Below are positions 1-12,739 of a stretch of 64,000 nt of DNA, piece by piece (within the stretch, counting starts at the first letter, position 1; each line of letters begins with the position of its first letter). A program made the position numbers and the translations under genes. The notes under the pieces are model-generated. The model worked only from the letters and a program-made list of their open reading frames with translations, was not told the DNA's origin and ran no database searches. Source of the stretch: an uncultured Gemmatimonadales bacterium (GTDB taxonomy: Bacteria > Gemmatimonadota > Gemmatimonadetes > Gemmatimonadales > GWC2-71-9); the NCBI GenBank assembly GCA_963695555.1, contig CAVOGR010000005.1, positions 416,001 through 480,000 of the forward strand. Reading direction: 5' to 3'.

Positions 1-1
1 G

Positions 2-160
2 AAACCCGAGTTCGAGTCGGTACCGGTGATCGCCATGCTGACGTCCACGGTCGACCGCCGGGATCGTCAGCGAGCGGCGTCGGCCGGCGCAAACGCCTAC
101 CTATCGAAGCCGCTGAACCCGACCGACTACATCGAGCTGTTCAACTCGTTCGTCGACTGA
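2..160 (+). CDS. Response regulator receiver domain, 5'-truncated by the window edge
   Basis: Frame 2 reads KPEFESVPVIAMLTSTVDRRDRQRAASAGANAYLSKPLNP...FVD*, with the receiver C-terminal motifs (M)LT, GA.xY and KP. Confidence 0.8.
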   Translation, partial: KPEFESVPVIAMLTSTVDRRDRQRAASAGANAYLSKPLNPTDYIELFNSFVD

Positions 161-178
161 GCGAACCGCCGGCATCGC

Positions 179-2702
179 TCATTGCAGCCTGTTCGTCGTG
201 ATCGGCGGCTTCGGAGGCGGCGGCGCAGCAACCCGCATTACCAAGGGACGCAACTCCCCGACATCCATCGGCCGAGCGAACAGGAATCCCTGCGCCATGT
301 CGCACGCCGTTGTCTGCAACGCCTTCAACTGTTCCGGACCTTCGATGCCGTCGGCCACAACCCGCATTCCGAGGGCGTGGGCGATCTCGATGACGCCGTG
401 GACAAACGGCACGTTCTCGCCGCCACCGGCGAGACGGTCGGCCATACGCCGGCCGAGTTTCAACACGTCGATGTCGAGTCTCTGCAGGTAACCGAGCGAG
501 GCCTGCCCATCGCCGAACCGATCGAGGGCCACGATCGCGCCGGCAGCTCGCATGGTGGCCAGCGCCGCCACGGACCGGTCGAACTGATCGACTAGTACCT
601 CTTCAGGCCATTCGATCATGAGCCGGCCTCGTGCCTGATCGAGGGCTGGGGAGGCCAGAAGCGTGCCGATCGATTCGTCGAAGATGTGCTGAGGAGCCAA
701 GTTCACCGATACGAACAGCTTGGGGTCCAGCGGCCAGACGTCGGCCAGCTCCTCGGTCGCTTTCGTCAACACCCACCGGTCGAGCTGGACCATCAAGCCG
801 GCCCGCTCCACCTCGCCCAGGAACTCCCCCGGCAGGAGGAGGCCACGCCGGGGATGGCGCCAGCGGACGAGCGTTTCGACCCCACAGACACGCCGCTGTG
901 AGACGTCGATGATCGGCTGAAAGTGCAGTTCCAGCTGGTCTTGGCGAATTGCCGAATCGAGCGAGCCTGCTTTGACTTGCCGTGGTGTGGTCTGCCCGAC
1001 GTCGTGTTTCGCGAACGGAACCTTTGCCCGATTGCTTGGCTCGATACATCGCGGCGTCGGCGTCACGGAGGAGTGATTCGGCGTCGTGATCAGCCCCGCC
1101 ACCAACCAGTCCGACACTGCATCCGATTCTGGCCTGACCATCAGGCAGGGCGATCGGCTCGGCCATTGTGGCCACGATTCGATGGGCGATGACATCCGGT
1201 TGGTCGACGTCGATCAAGAGGACTGCGAACTCGTCGCCGCCAAACCGGGAGACGATATCCTCGGGCCGTACAAGATCGTTGAGCCGCCGGCCCACCTCGA
1301 TGAGTACGGCATCGCCGGCTGCGTGGCCGTACGTGTCGTTCACCGCTTTGAAGCCGTCGAGATCGATGAACAGGAGGGCGTGGTTCTTCGATGAGCGGGC
1401 GGCGAGGTGGAGGGCCTCGGTGAACATCGATCGATTCGGCAGACCGGTGAGCGAATCATGACTGGCCTGGTAGGCAAGCTCCCGTTCGAGCTGTCGCAGA
1501 TCGGTCAGTGCCTGTTCGAGCCGGTCGCTGTGCATCAGGATTGCCGACTGACGGGCTAATGCGCCGAGGACCTGGAGGTCGTTCTCGGAAAACGACGTGA
1601 CCTCCCCGAGCCGGTTCGCGACCACCAACAGACCGAGATCCCGATTCTCGGCACGGAGCTTGGCCACCATGGCATCTCGTCCGCCCAAACCGACGACCAG
1701 GTCGGCGACAACGCCTGTGTCGTCTCGGCCGATGATGGCGGGCTCGTGAAATGCCGACAGCGTTGAGACGACGCGTGCCACCTCTCGGGCCTTGACCAGT
1801 GAAGAGGACTGCTCCCCGGACTTGGTGCTCCGGACGACACGGATGCCGTCGTCTTCCTTCAACACCACTGCGCCGATTTCGGCCCGAAACATCTCCCGGG
1901 CCTCCTGCAACAAGGTGACGAGACCCGCCTCGGAGGCTCCGACGTCCAGTCGCCGAGTGGACCGATAGAGAAACTCGATGCGTTCCCTCTGTTCACGCTC
2001 CGAGGTGATCACTCGGAACGCGGTGAAGAGCAGGAAAACGGGAACCGCCAAGAGCAGGACGGCGAAGATGTCCCTGGCCAGAATGATGCCTGCAGTGAGA
2101 CCGATGGTTGTATTGGTCACGCTGACCACGAGCCCGAACGACAACAGCTCGGAACTCCTCCGCCAGCCAGGGAATCCTTCGGTCAGCATGACGACCAGTA
2201 CGATCAGGGCAAAGCTGGCCGCTGACCCGAGAACGACCGCCATGATCGTCGACAGCCAGATGAGCCGCTCGCCGTCGCCGAAGGGTTCCAACCCGACGAC
2301 CAGCGCGGCCGTCCCGGCAAATATCCCGAGATTTGCCGCATTGAAGGCGACCTTCAGGGCGGGCTGTCGCCTTCCAGCGAGGAGGCCCAAGGCTGTGCCG
2401 CCAATGGTGGCAATCACGACGTGGCCAGGCGCTGTGTAGAGCAAGCCCAGAACAAGAGGAATCTCGAAGAGCGAGAAACTGCTGGCTTCCGCCCGGAACT
2501 GCACGTGGATGACACGCCACTCGACAAAGGCGAATGCGGCCACAAGCCAGATGACGTTGATCTCGACGCCGGCGATTTGCGGCCGACCGCTGCTCAGCAG
2601 TGCCAGGAGGACAAGATCGAGGGTGAGCAAGGCCAGCACGAGGCCGAGAACCCGCTGTGATGGGTTGGTTCCGGCTGAACGTCGGCGGGCTCTCCGGCTC
2701 AC
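179..2702 (-). CDS. Membrane-anchored GAF-GGDEF-EAL protein (probable diguanylate cyclase with degenerate EAL); one frameshift near 1000-1030
   Basis: ORF 603..2702 has several TM helices, a GAF-like segment, HDSLTGLPNR, DLDGFKAVNDTYGH and RPEDIVSRFGGDEF. ORF 179..1195 supplies the EAL domain (HFQPI, VETLVRW, QGFLFARP). Confidence 0.9.
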
Positions 2703-2901
2703 CTTCAGACAATCGGCGGCGCCGGTCCCGAGATGAAATACCGGTCCGAGAAATCATCGATGCCCAGGTTTCTGGGCAGTGTTGCCCAAACATCTCGTGT
2801 CGGCCCGGGGGATTCGAGCTGAGCCTCTGGGCCAGCCGGCTCATCCTTGTTGTTCCGGGTTCAAGTTTTCGAGGTGAGGTGTCGAAAGCTGGTACGTACT
2901 A

Positions 2902-2991
2902 ATCACTGTGACCGAGGCGCTGATCCCCACGGCTGTACTTTGGTCGCTTGGCCGTGGGTGGGAGCCAGTAGCGAAACCGGCGTTCTCTGAT
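2902..2991 (+). ncRNA. Cyclic di-GMP-II riboswitch aptamer in the 5' leader of the S8 protease
   Basis: GAGGCGCTGA...CCCACGGC..TGGTCGCTT.GCCGTGGG..GAGCCAGTAGCGAAACCGG follows the class II layout: GGC/GCC stem, TGA/GA kink-turn, CCCACGGC/GCCGTGGG stem, loop TCGCT pseudoknotted to AGCGA, conserved AACCG junction. Confidence 0.85.
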
Positions 2992-3001
2992 CGACTGAGA
3001 G

Positions 3002-4583
3002 ATGAGAACAATGAGTACAGATTGGGTCCGAGTAGAGGGAGTCACCTGGCAGACTTCCAAACGAGACCAGTTGATCGCTCTCGCGGCAGCTTTGGCCTTG
3101 CTGGTTGCGGTGGTGGCGAGCGTCGCTCCAGCTTCTGCCGGCAAACCGGGTGGCAGCAGTTGGACGCCACCTTCGGGGATGTTCGGCTCCGAGGTCGCGT
3201 GGAGGACCGGGGTGGAACCGATGTGGGATCTCGGCTACACCGGCTCCGGGATCGATGTCGCCGTCATCGACACCGGTGTGAACGCCGTCCAAGGTCTCGA
3301 CGGCAGAGACAAGATCATCGACGGACCGGACTTCTCGTTCGACTCCGACGACGCCAACCTCCGCCACCGGGATCTCTACGGCCACGGCACCGCCATGGCC
3401 AGCCTGGTCGCCGGTGCTGCCGGGAAGAACGCCGATCTCGTCGGCGCCAACAACATGGCCTACGGTATGGCACCCAACGCCAGGATCGTCAACGTCAAGG
3501 TCGGCGACGGTGTCGGCGCCGTCGACGTCTCCCAGGTCATCGCCGCCATCGACTGGGTGGTTCAGCACCGCAACGCCAACGGCATGAACGTCCGGGTCAT
3601 GCTGTTGGCCTTCGACACCGACTCCACCCAGGGCTACCTCCTCGACCCGCTGGCCTATGCCGTCGAGAACGCCTGGCATCACGGCATCACCGTCGTGGTC
3701 TCGGCCGGCAATGACGGCAAGTCGGCCCAGACCCTGGGCAACCCGGCCATAGACCCCTACGTGATCGCCGTCGGCGGCGTCGAGCCGGCCAAGGGTAACT
3801 CGTGGAAGGTGCCGGGCTGGGCCTCGTCCGGTGACGGGATCCGCAACCCGGACCTGGCCACCCCGGCTCCCAGATCCTGGCCGCCGCCGTGCCGGGCTCC
3901 TATCTGGTCAACGCCCACCCGGATGCGGTGTTCGACACCCCCGACGGGCCGGTCATCCGAGGCAACGGCACCTCCCAAGCCGCCGCCGTCGCCGCCGGTG
4001 CCGCAGCGACTCTTCTCGAGGCCCGACCGAGCCTCACCCCCGACCAGGTCAAGGCCGCTCTCACCGGGAGCGCCAACGACGTCGGCATCCCCGCCAAGTT
4101 CGCCGGAACGGGCGTCCTCGACCTCCACCCCGCTCTCGACGCCAACGTCGTCGGCGCCACCCAGACCACGCCCGGGCCACGGGCCTCGGCACCCTCGAAG
4201 CCACCCGCGGCAGCTACCACGTCGGTCCGACAGGTGATCAGCTCAGCGGTGAGCTGACAGCGTTCGGCGACACCTGGAACCCCAGCGCCTGGAAGGCCGC
4301 CACCACCCAGGCCGCCGCCTACACAAACTCCACCTTCGACGGTGCGACCTGGAGCACCGGCTCCTGGCTCGGTGGCACCTGGTCCGGCGCAACCTGGTCC
4401 GGGGCAACCTGGAGCGGCGCAACCTGGTCCGGCGCAACCTGGAGCGGCGCCACCTGGTCCGGCGCAACCTGGTCCGGCGCAACCTGGAGCGGGGCCACCT
4501 GGTCCGGCGCAACCTGGTCCGGCGCAACCTGGAGCGGGGCCACCTGGTCCGGCGCAACCTGGAGCGGAAGCAGCTGGAGCTGA
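3002..4583 (+). CDS. Secreted S8 (subtilisin/AprX-like) serine protease with a C-terminal Trp-rich pentapeptide repeat tail; frameshifts near 3865 and 4170
   Basis: Signal peptide (LIALAAALALLVAVVASVAPASA). Catalytic motifs VIDTG, GHGTAMA, SAGN (ORF 3002) and GNGTSQAA (ORF 3889). Tail in ORF 3831..4583. Confidence 0.9.
4380..4559 (+). repeat. 12 x 15-bp coding tandem repeat encoding (WSGAT)12
   Basis: Units TGG-TCC/AGC-GGC/GGG-GCA/GCC-ACC vary only synonymously; followed by WSGSSWS*. Confidence 0.97.
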
Positions 4584-4653
4584 CCGAAGACGCTCAACCA
4601 GCGAGGAACTCCCTGGAACCAGCCGGATGACACGGTTCCTCAAAACACCGCCA

Positions 4654-4687
4654 GCGCAGCGCCCAGTCCAAACACTGGGCGCTGCGT
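4654..4687. terminator. GC-rich hairpin between the convergent protease and tRNA genes (likely bidirectional terminator)
   Basis: GCGCAGCGCCCAGT-ccaaac-ACTGGGCGCTGCGT. Confidence 0.7.
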
Positions 4688-4709
4688 CGCGTCGTCGGTG
4701 AAACAGCGG

Positions 4710-4794
4710 TGCCCGGGGTGGGAGTCGAACCCACACGCCCCCTGAGGAGCCGAGGGGTTTAAGCCCTCTGCGTCTGCCGTTCCGCCACCCGGGC
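4710..4794 (-). tRNA. tRNA-Leu(TAA)
   Basis: Reverse complement GCCCGGGTGGCGGAACGGCAGACGCAGAGGGC-TTAAA-CCCCTC...GGTTCGACTCCCACCCCGGGCA; long variable arm, anticodon loop CT-TAA-AC. Confidence 0.95.
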
Positions 4795-11943: not shown

Positions 11944-12739
11944 CAGATGAAGGCGATGACGAGCGCGAGCAGGCCCACAGCCGGAACCAACCGCTTGGCC
12001 ATCGACTCGCCGCCGACGGCGAGCAGATCGACGGCCTCCGGCTCGGGCGAGTTGATCTTGCGAACCCCACCCGAAACCTTCTCGGCCACGGCTCCGGCCG
12101 CGTTCGATGCGGCCGCAGCGGCGTCTCCGGCGGCGGAACCTACCTTGTCGGCCACGGTTGCCGCTTTGTCGCCGGCCGTGTCGGCGGCGTCGGATGCGGC
12201 GTCGCCAACCGCAGCCGCGGCGTCATCTGCAGCAGCCGCCGCGCTGTCGGCGGCGGAACCGGCGGCCGCCGCCACGCCGCTCGCTCCGGACGGCGAGTCA
12301 TCGGCGAGCTTGTCGCGGAGGTTGTCGGTGAACTGACCCAGGAGCTTCTTCGACACGTCCTCGATCGCGCCACGTCCGAAGCTGGCGATCTTGCCGCTCA
12401 AGCCCAGGTCGGTATGGATCTCGACCTTGGTCTGATCGGCCGCCAACTCCTCCAGCGTGGCGGTCACGACGGCGTTGGCGTTGCCCTGACGCGGGTCACG
12501 ACCCTCGGCCTTCAGCTTGGCCACGTGGTTCTCGGCATCCTGCTCGATGAACGTGCCTTACCCTTGTAATTGGCGGTGATCGGACCCACCTTGATCTTGA
12601 CGAGGCCACGGTACTCGTCACCCTCGATCTCGGTCAGCTGGGCGCCGGGCATGCAGGGAGCGATGAACTCGAGGTCGTTGAGGATCGTCCAGGTCTCCTC
12701 GATCGGTCGTTCGATAACGAATTCGTTCGTCAGCTCCAT
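11922..12739 (-). CDS. CoxG/SRPBCC family protein with an Ala-rich linker and C-terminal TM helix, frameshift near 12555
   Basis: MELTNEF..., IAPCMPGAQL, KVGPI, GRD.RQGNANA and GKIASFGRG. Confidence 0.85.

Follow-up and report, generated by a model that had tools for sequence, protein, structure and literature searches.

A subtilase with tryptophan pentapeptide units, led by a class II c-di-GMP aptamer and divergent from a MASE9-like membrane cyclase, in an Acidimicrobiia-like contig stretch

Class II riboswitches for cyclic di-GMP (c-di-GMP), the MASE9 membrane sensor, the WhiG-RsiG switch of Actinomycetota and peptide quorum sensing include the closest described relatives of a locus found at the start of a 64,000-nucleotide stretch (hereafter the window) of contig CAVOGR010000005.1 (C5, positions 416,001 to 480,000), assembled for an uncultured Gemmatimonadales bacterium (G000). 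The locus consists of a gene for a secreted S8 subtilase with a tail of tryptophan-containing five-residue units, led by a class II aptamer and a predicted WhiG promoter, and of a divergent gene for a membrane sensor diguanylate cyclase (Table 1).

The aptamer resembles the canonical c-di-GMP-II riboswitch (RF01786; Clostridium acetobutylicum structure 3Q3Z) in its helices P1, P2 and P3, its pseudoknot and nine of the ligand contacts listed for that structure, but differs in its actinobacterial host, a score below the cut-off, a platform likely directed against the ribosome site and a secreted protease downstream. It shares with the c-di-GMP-II-GAG consensus (RF03169) a U-A at the 40/68 pair, whereas it carries U37/A69 instead of C37/G69, and the GAG type led no protease in 39 cases. 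The sensor, like MASE9 (PF20972), is a membrane domain fused to GGDEF-EAL, but belongs to a divergent branch without its own Pfam match. MASE9 has no known ligand, and binding is predicted to occur within the membrane (Galperin and Chou, bioRxiv 10.1101/2021.11.05.467447); the portion of that preprint available to us names no protease partner. The locus resembles the WhiG-RsiG switch in a promoter that follows the published search rule and in the presence of both proteins in all five related genomes tested, with the difference that the predicted WhiG control would here come on top of a riboswitch acting in the opposite direction.

Peptide quorum sensing provides a more distant comparison. Subtilisin-type proteases excise the Phr pentapeptides of Bacillus, ComX/ComP and Agr signalling relies on membrane receptors, and yeast alpha-factor is made as a polyprotein. 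By analogy, the locus would share with these systems a secreted precursor, a five-residue unit in several copies, a lineage-specific sequence and a linked receptor gene. However, precursor and protease would here be one chain, the output would be c-di-GMP, and the putative receptor, with its predicted S-component fold, lacks any domain of the RRNPP or AgrC type. Pentapeptide repeat proteins (PF13576/PF00805) have the same five-residue period and give a borderline Pfam match with the tail; in contrast to them, the tail has Trp at the core place, near-identical units and no beta-helix in the model of the relative P0002 (21-row alignment). Relatives are known for every component, namely the class II riboswitch, WhiG-RsiG, MASE9, subtilases and Phr-type signalling. 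No paper joining these parts was found in the literature searched, whose scope excluded most subscription papers and the bioRxiv supplements (WhiG regulon tables, MASE9 figure). We know of no peptide-signalling system in these uncultured Actinomycetota and other phyla.

Protease and sensor genes as a linked pair

The functional link between protease and membrane cyclase proposed in the initial annotation holds across their relatives. Among 157 distinct protease genes collected, 101 have enough flanking sequence for locus counts, and a sensor homologue is present in the locus of 69 of them, directly downstream on the same strand in 58 cases and divergent in 5. At the genome level (151 class genomes), the sensor occurs in 22 of the 23 genomes with the protease against 14 of the 128 without it; 15 of these 22 sensor-positive genomes supplied rows to the profile while the other 7 were matched independently. 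The two genes form a widespread, functionally linked pair. Duplicate loci, the misparsed L205 and, in one comparison, L028 were left out of the counts; 10 of 30 and 7 of 27 loci were left out of two scans and are covered by the profile scans. Sensor outputs vary among loci, being either GGDEF-EAL or a histidine kinase. Tandem protease paralogues, often with different units (e.g. GATWS and GSTWS), lie beside one sensor in L017, L018, L021, L030, L033, L038 and L116. In L046 a protease with GLSWS units lies between two sensors, one GGDEF-EAL and one histidine kinase, which group together in the sensor tree.

The riboswitch comes as an addition to this pair. Among 14 riboswitch-led proteases, five also have an adjoining sensor gene, in divergent (window and its close relative L029), co-directional (L196, L166) and convergent (L203) orientations. 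The initial annotation had suggested counting the co-occurrence of the three parts in other genomes: the protease-sensor pair is indeed frequent and the triple recurs, but the divergent three-part layout was seen only in the window and L029.

The divergent genes are separated, as first described, by a spacer of 308 bp (2703-3010). In the sensor, the GGDEF, DxDxFK and NDxxGH motifs and the RxxD site are all intact. An active EAL domain carries the signature ExL, N, E, a DDFGTGYSS loop, KID, EGVE and Q; the window and L029 have DRFGDGQAS, KLG and DGIE at the corresponding motifs, so the domain is probably catalytically inactive, as judged from sequence. Degeneration of the EAL domain is a peculiarity of this lineage, as 19 of 20 full-length sensors keep the DD motif. 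Motif inspection thus upholds the earlier reading of an intact GGDEF joined to a degenerate EAL.

Pfam gives no match for the membrane domain of this sensor. Weak matches to MASE9 are given by 15 of 58 relatives, with a best E of 5e-5, but not by the window protein, and in the Atlas the domain falls with clusters containing 13-24% MASE9 at 0.92, which points to MASE9. The domain model has a predicted local distance difference test score (pLDDT) of 93, and its top 15 structural matches are all S-components of energy-coupling factor (ECF) transporters (Z 10.5-13.6, root mean square deviation 3.0-4.3 over 148-182 residues), the next row having Z 7.8. Foldseek gave nothing at E <=0.001, although S-components filled its first nine rows. 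The predicted fold would be one for small ligands from outside and by itself names no ligand.

Table 1. Features of the locus and related small peptides (window positions unless a locus is given)
Feature	Position	Strand	Evidence
Membrane sensor diguanylate cyclase gene, MASE9-like transmembrane - GAF - GGDEF - degenerate EAL	179..2702	-	Pfam; intact L029 orthologue
MASE9-like membrane sensor domain, predicted ECF S-component fold	1953..2669	-	Pfam matches of relatives, Atlas, model
GAF domain	1539..1916	-	Pfam GAF_3 E 7e-7, residues 263-388
GGDEF domain	1023..1466	-	Pfam E 1.4e-40; motif 1227-1241; RxxD inhibitory site 1257-1268
EAL domain with altered catalytic motifs	269..964	-	Pfam E 7.6e-57; ETL, DRFG, KLG, DGIE
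Predicted WhiG/sigma-28 promoter: TCAA, 16 nt, GTCGAAAG	2861..2888	+	published search rule
c-di-GMP-II aptamer, canonical U37/A69/A70/G73 type	2904..2991	+	Rfam, contacts, covariation
Aptamer pseudoknot	loop 2941-2948 with 2970-2978	+	
Predicted expression platform: P1 3' strand (2981-2987) pairs alternatively with 3004-3009 beside start codon 3011	2981..3013	+	
S8 subtilase gene, secreted, without long propeptide	3011..4583	+	Pfam; catalytic residues; intact relatives
Predicted signal peptide ending A-S-A	3011..3139	+	sequence; helix 18-38 in model of relative P0002
Tail of 16 five-residue units, Trp at position 4	4341..4580	+	12 identical GATWS at 4386-4565 and 4 variants
Small secreted peptides ending G-x-x-W-x	L109:5696-5896; L113 after 2136; L074:1731-1988	-; +; +	

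Predicted control of the protease gene by c-di-GMP

The class II aptamer that the initial annotation placed directly upstream of the protease start is confirmed by Rfam scores, ligand contacts and covariation. Its best match over the cut-off is RF03169 (45.1 bits, cut-off 40), while RF01786 scores 46.3 bits (E 7.9e-9), below its gathering cut-off of 53.5; the relative L126 passes RF01786 at 60.2 bits. The contacts of 3Q3Z, as listed in PMC7288161 and transferred through the RF01786 consensus, are kept at A13, U37, G39, A61, A69, A70, C71, C72 and G73. The window differs at positions 14, 60, 68 and 74, C68 being an A that is compensated by a loop U. In 16 leaders of the U37 type, 97.1% of the P1, P2 and pseudoknot cells are paired (P3 was excluded owing to gaps) and 7 of 15 pairs are changed on both sides; none of 500 shuffles reached this covariation score and slid controls were all lower. 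The Rfam GAG label is a matter of score, and the class II assignment, made from sequence features, stands. The GAG variant, reportedly defined by Weinberg in PNAS in 2017, presumably takes its name from positions 69, 70 and 73. Reading the aptamer as that variant was dropped on the RF01786 score, the canonical contacts as listed and the U37/A69 type.

Parsing of 62 aptamers from Acidimicrobiia-type loci gave 36 of C37/G69-A70-G73 type, 18 of U37/A69-A70-G73 type and 8 others. Leaders of tailed proteases are of U37 type in 14 of 14 distinct aptamers, window included. In a sample collected from the riboswitch side, which is biased to high GAG scores as its 40 regions were taken from the top of 94 aptamer matches, a protease follows none of 39 G69 aptamers against 2 of 8 A69 aptamers, and an LPxTG-like gene is found at 20 of the 39 G69 aptamers. 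The GAG-type (C37/G69) leaders L171-L210 lie mostly before LPxTG-like surface-protein genes and carry an anti-ribosome-site hairpin; upstream of many of them GTGGT/ACCAC-like words recur, in which a regulator may bind. In the Gemmatimonadetes-like loci L001, L002, L003 and L005, class II-type aptamers (A69, A70, G73) are followed by a hairpin and a T-run, a transcriptional platform; such loci were left out of the platform and promoter tests.

No intrinsic terminator was found 3' of the window aptamer, and a transcriptional platform was therefore set aside. In the free fold, the P1 3' strand pairs with the hexamer that precedes the AAUG start region, which excludes P1, and most leaders can form this alternative hairpin. 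Over 57 leaders, the P1 strand pairs more strongly with its own ribosome region (-9.7 kcal/mol) than with foreign ones (-7.4 kcal/mol), and locking P1 leaves the ribosome region more open in 6 of 8 leaders. Since the P1 strand is able to pair with the ribosome site, the leader is likely a translational ON switch. Several observations weigh against this direction: P1 lock closes the ribosome region in the other 2 of 8 leaders, the opening predicted for the window leader is small (0.41 to 0.48), the gap within the 21 U37 leaders is also small (own -8.1, foreign -7.0 kcal/mol), and P1 in the window contains a C-U mismatch not present in L029.

The published rule for WhiG promoters asks for T(A/C)AA-N16-GCCGA, allows a single mismatch and sets a limit of 200 bp to the start (bioRxiv 10.64898/2026.01.14.699351). 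The promoter element of Table 1 matches this rule, is the sole match within the first 12 kb of the window and is kept in L029. Matches occur at 8 of 22 U37 leaders (shuffles 0.17, maximum 2) against none of 37 C37 leaders, and all eight precede proteases, a micropeptide or a tandem leader. A looser promoter score finds close matches at 21 of 143 protease genes against 1.8 in shuffles. FliA/WhiG and RsiG are above cut-off in all five tested genomes with riboswitch-led proteases. A scan for sigma-70 promoters found none, and no match to the WhiG rule is oriented towards the cyclase gene. RsiG armed by c-di-GMP sequesters WhiG (PMC8325347), and cyclase and phosphodiesterase genes are among the WhiG targets (PMC8325347; bioRxiv 10.64898/2026.01.14.699351); the main texts of these two papers, as available to us, name no protease, peptidase or riboswitch target. 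It is therefore probable that c-di-GMP acts twice on the protease gene, through the riboswitch and through WhiG/RsiG. With RsiG shutting transcription at high c-di-GMP and translation needing c-di-GMP, a band-pass response would follow.

Tail units and the proposed peptide loop

The protease has the subtilisin fold with catalytic Asp (3269), His (3383) and Ser (3973) and the oxyanion Asn (3710). Among relatives, 87 of 143 proteases have fewer than 70 residues from signal peptide to catalytic domain, where a usual propeptide would not fit. The tail region holds a 15-nt array (4377-4562); 13 of 15 relatives fetched end in such a tail, the other 2 being frameshifted, and arrays range from 4 to 34 units. 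A G-V-T-W motif also occurs in the N-region of the signal peptide (3038-3049), and one or two G-V-T-W-like motifs resembling the tail unit are present at the N-termini in L015, L019, L031, L111 and L074.

In 145 arrays with 60 unit types, units within a protein differ by 19-31% per position, the codons of a given residue differ in 42-51% of pairwise comparisons, and only 17.5% of identical units have identical DNA; both Ser codon families are used in 138 of 208 Ser columns. Between proteins, unit position 2 differs in 81% of comparisons. Low unit variation, high codon variation and change between proteins together indicate that selection keeps the units of one protein alike and lets lineages differ. 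The plain ratio of nonsynonymous to synonymous changes (dN/dS) among units is misleading because Ser switches codon family, and was replaced by this within-protein codon comparison.

Units also occur without a protease. The riboswitch-led genes of L109 and L113 encode protease-free micropeptides of 66 and 79 residues with a signal peptide and two units, whose C-terminal end is the unit (GATWS); their promoters are one strict and one near match to the WhiG rule. In L109 homologues both units are kept in 8 of 8 while the linker between them is variable, and in L074 a micropeptide gene lies between protease and sensor. Riboswitch-led micropeptides with the same units and no protease favour the unit as a signal.

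Starting from the statistical association of the two genes, the mechanism that we consider would run as follows. The secreted subtilase would release its own identical Trp pentapeptides, and the neighbouring MASE9-like membrane domain would bind them and set cyclase activity; that the tail unit is the sensor ligand has about an even chance. As its EAL is probably dead and its GGDEF and RxxD site are intact, the local enzyme would only make c-di-GMP, under product inhibition, and the peptide could turn it on or off. The aptamer leading the protease gene, identified by sequence and covariation, very probably binds c-di-GMP; once bound it would hold the P1 3' strand and free the ribosome site, so that translation is fairly likely to be ON with c-di-GMP. 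Transcription from the WhiG promoter, shut by RsiG at high c-di-GMP, is rated slightly more probable than this direction of the switch. Both controls together would confine expression to a low-to-middle range of c-di-GMP or to a pulse. Taken whole, as a protease-sensor module with self-released Trp pentapeptides, sensor readout and double c-di-GMP feedback, this proposal falls a little short of an even chance. Its boldest form, in which a self-processing subtilase with a pheromone tail (or a micropeptide gene), an S-component-fold MASE9 receptor and c-di-GMP output with double feedback make a band-pass or pulse generator, is more tentative still. The earlier suggestion that the tail could generate the cue is plausible in view of the micropeptides and unit conservation, and remains at the rank of a favoured, sequence-derived reading.

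The tail could instead be structural and form a fibre or a pentapeptide beta-helix with a Trp core, or serve as a tag for retention at the surface. The protease would then be a c-di-GMP-controlled output, and the sensor would read another proteolysis product or a small metabolite, for instance free tryptophan. This explanation is rather unlikely. Read as A-T-W-S-G, the unit conforms to the pattern of pentapeptide repeats and puts Trp in the core, and Pfam Pentapeptide_3 weakly matches the tail (27.8 bits, cut-off 27). Identical units would also be favoured by a stacked beta-solenoid or fibre, and vitamins and ions are the normal ligands of S-components. In the P0002 model, the protease and the first mixed units are folded (pLDDT 76-94 to residue 450), whereas the homogeneous tail is unfolded (pLDDT <50, residues 462-521), which speaks against a structural tail but is weak evidence with an alignment of 21 rows. 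Against it also stand the outward-facing positions, identical within a protein and changed between proteins, the two-unit micropeptides with variable linker, too short for a solenoid, and the wide range of array lengths. As to the peptide loop, an Asp at one membrane position is present in 15 of the 24 sensors that neighbour a basic unit and in 1 of 44 otherwise, but this charge matching of sensor and unit is lost after tree correction (4 independent pairs, sign test p 0.5). Moreover, the sensor profile has no match in G151, which holds four riboswitch-led proteases and a micropeptide, or in G152, both incomplete genomes. The circuit, initially described as self-contained, was overstated in this respect, given these two genomes and its apparent dependence on WhiG and RsiG encoded elsewhere.

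Less probable, and in our view unlikely, is the absence of any local loop: the riboswitch would read the whole-cell c-di-GMP pool, having been placed before an older protease-sensor pair in some Acidimicrobiia, and the neighbouring cyclase would have no special say. The riboswitch precedes only 9 of the 101 protease genes, a share that may even be raised by protease queries close to this clade, and a sensor is in the locus for 2 of these 9. Among the 14 riboswitch-led proteases, 9 lack an adjoining sensor, although five of the nine have less than 1.6 kb of flank on one side. The genome with four riboswitch-led paralogues has two WhiG-family sigma factors over the cut-off and no sensor match. 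Of the 151 class genomes, 52 contain aptamers of the clan, most of which lie ahead of surface-protein genes. On the other side, the three parts adjoin in three different orientations, which suggests repeated assembly, and proteases go with U37-type aptamers and not with the commoner GAG type.

Gene integrity, origin and significance

Both genes are broken in the assembly. On the minus strand, an open reading frame (603-2702) covers GAF and GGDEF and a second frame (179-1195) covers EAL; on the plus strand, S8 is matched in two frames and the repeat tail lies in the third, according to the list of open reading frames and Pfam. Comparison with L029 places single-base indels near 1015, 3861 and 4166: one surplus base in the sensor gene near 1015, and one missing base at each of the other two sites in the protease gene (also against L030). 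L029 is a short-read metagenome contig, 89% identical over 4486 columns with gene order kept. Its genes are unbroken, with a sensor of 853 residues and a protease truncated by the contig end alone. The extra base near 1015 is also absent from contigs of read runs X3 and X6, of which the X3 contig shares differences with L029 and was not counted as independent. Positions 3861 and 4166 are uncovered at high identity in four read runs, which hold relatives of this strain. Protease relatives at 83-86% identity have an unbroken gene. Adjoining genes in the same stretch are often split too (median open reading frame 233 residues against 306-318 elsewhere), and the three frameshifts are therefore read as probable assembly errors. 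That both genes are true pseudogenes and the circuit dead in this strain is very improbable: it has for it the three frameshifts and the lack of read sets of the same strain covering their sites, and against it the many split neighbours, the absence of in-frame stops, the kept catalytic residues, promoter and aptamer, and the intact orthologues.

Two changes of character are seen along contig C5, one near 406 kb and one near 428 kb (around window position 12000). The segment that starts some 10 kb ahead of the window and reaches about 12 kb into it has its closest named relatives in Acidimicrobiia (P0004, 85%). C5 is a mosaic of Gemmatimonadetes-like DNA, about 22 kb of Acidimicrobiia-like DNA, and alphaproteobacteria-like DNA with many frameshifts. 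We take the remainder of the contig to be alphaproteobacterial from its gene content, and the kin of G000 to be Gemmatimonadetes from their genes. The release factor of G000 is 69% identical to that of a genome of the same family, and no WhiB was found. Most likely the contig is a chimeric assembly and the locus itself comes from Acidimicrobiia, in agreement with the actinobacterial host first assumed. The window findings are therefore not creditable to the genome's own taxon. No such locus was found in the kin of G000 (151 genomes; 4 genomes searched by DNA), because these kin belong to another phylum than this stretch, and the search was re-centred on G151.

Two neighbouring features frame the locus. 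A single-domain response regulator gene (window 1-160; C5 415687-416160, plus strand) converges on the cyclase gene and keeps its place in L029. Beyond the protease gene lie a G+C-rich inverted repeat (4649-4690) and a tRNA-Leu gene (4710-4794, minus strand); the protease paralogue L139 likewise adjoins such a tRNA gene.

Class II aptamers of Acidimicrobiia fall into two types, of which U37-A69 leads proteases and micropeptides and C37-G69 leads surface proteins, a contrast that offers a clean pair for asking whether the GAG variant has another ligand. Of the loci that we encountered this one is the best wired: its promoter, riboswitch, precursor-protease and receptor-cyclase fit into 4.4 kb, and the links between them can be tested one at a time. 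The tail unit, inexpensive to synthesise, is a candidate ligand for a sensor domain that is still an orphan and that is coupled to c-di-GMP enzymes and histidine kinases across many uncultured Actinomycetota and further phyla. If the proposal is true, the unit would be the first ligand for MASE9 and the system would define a new class of bacterial peptide signalling.

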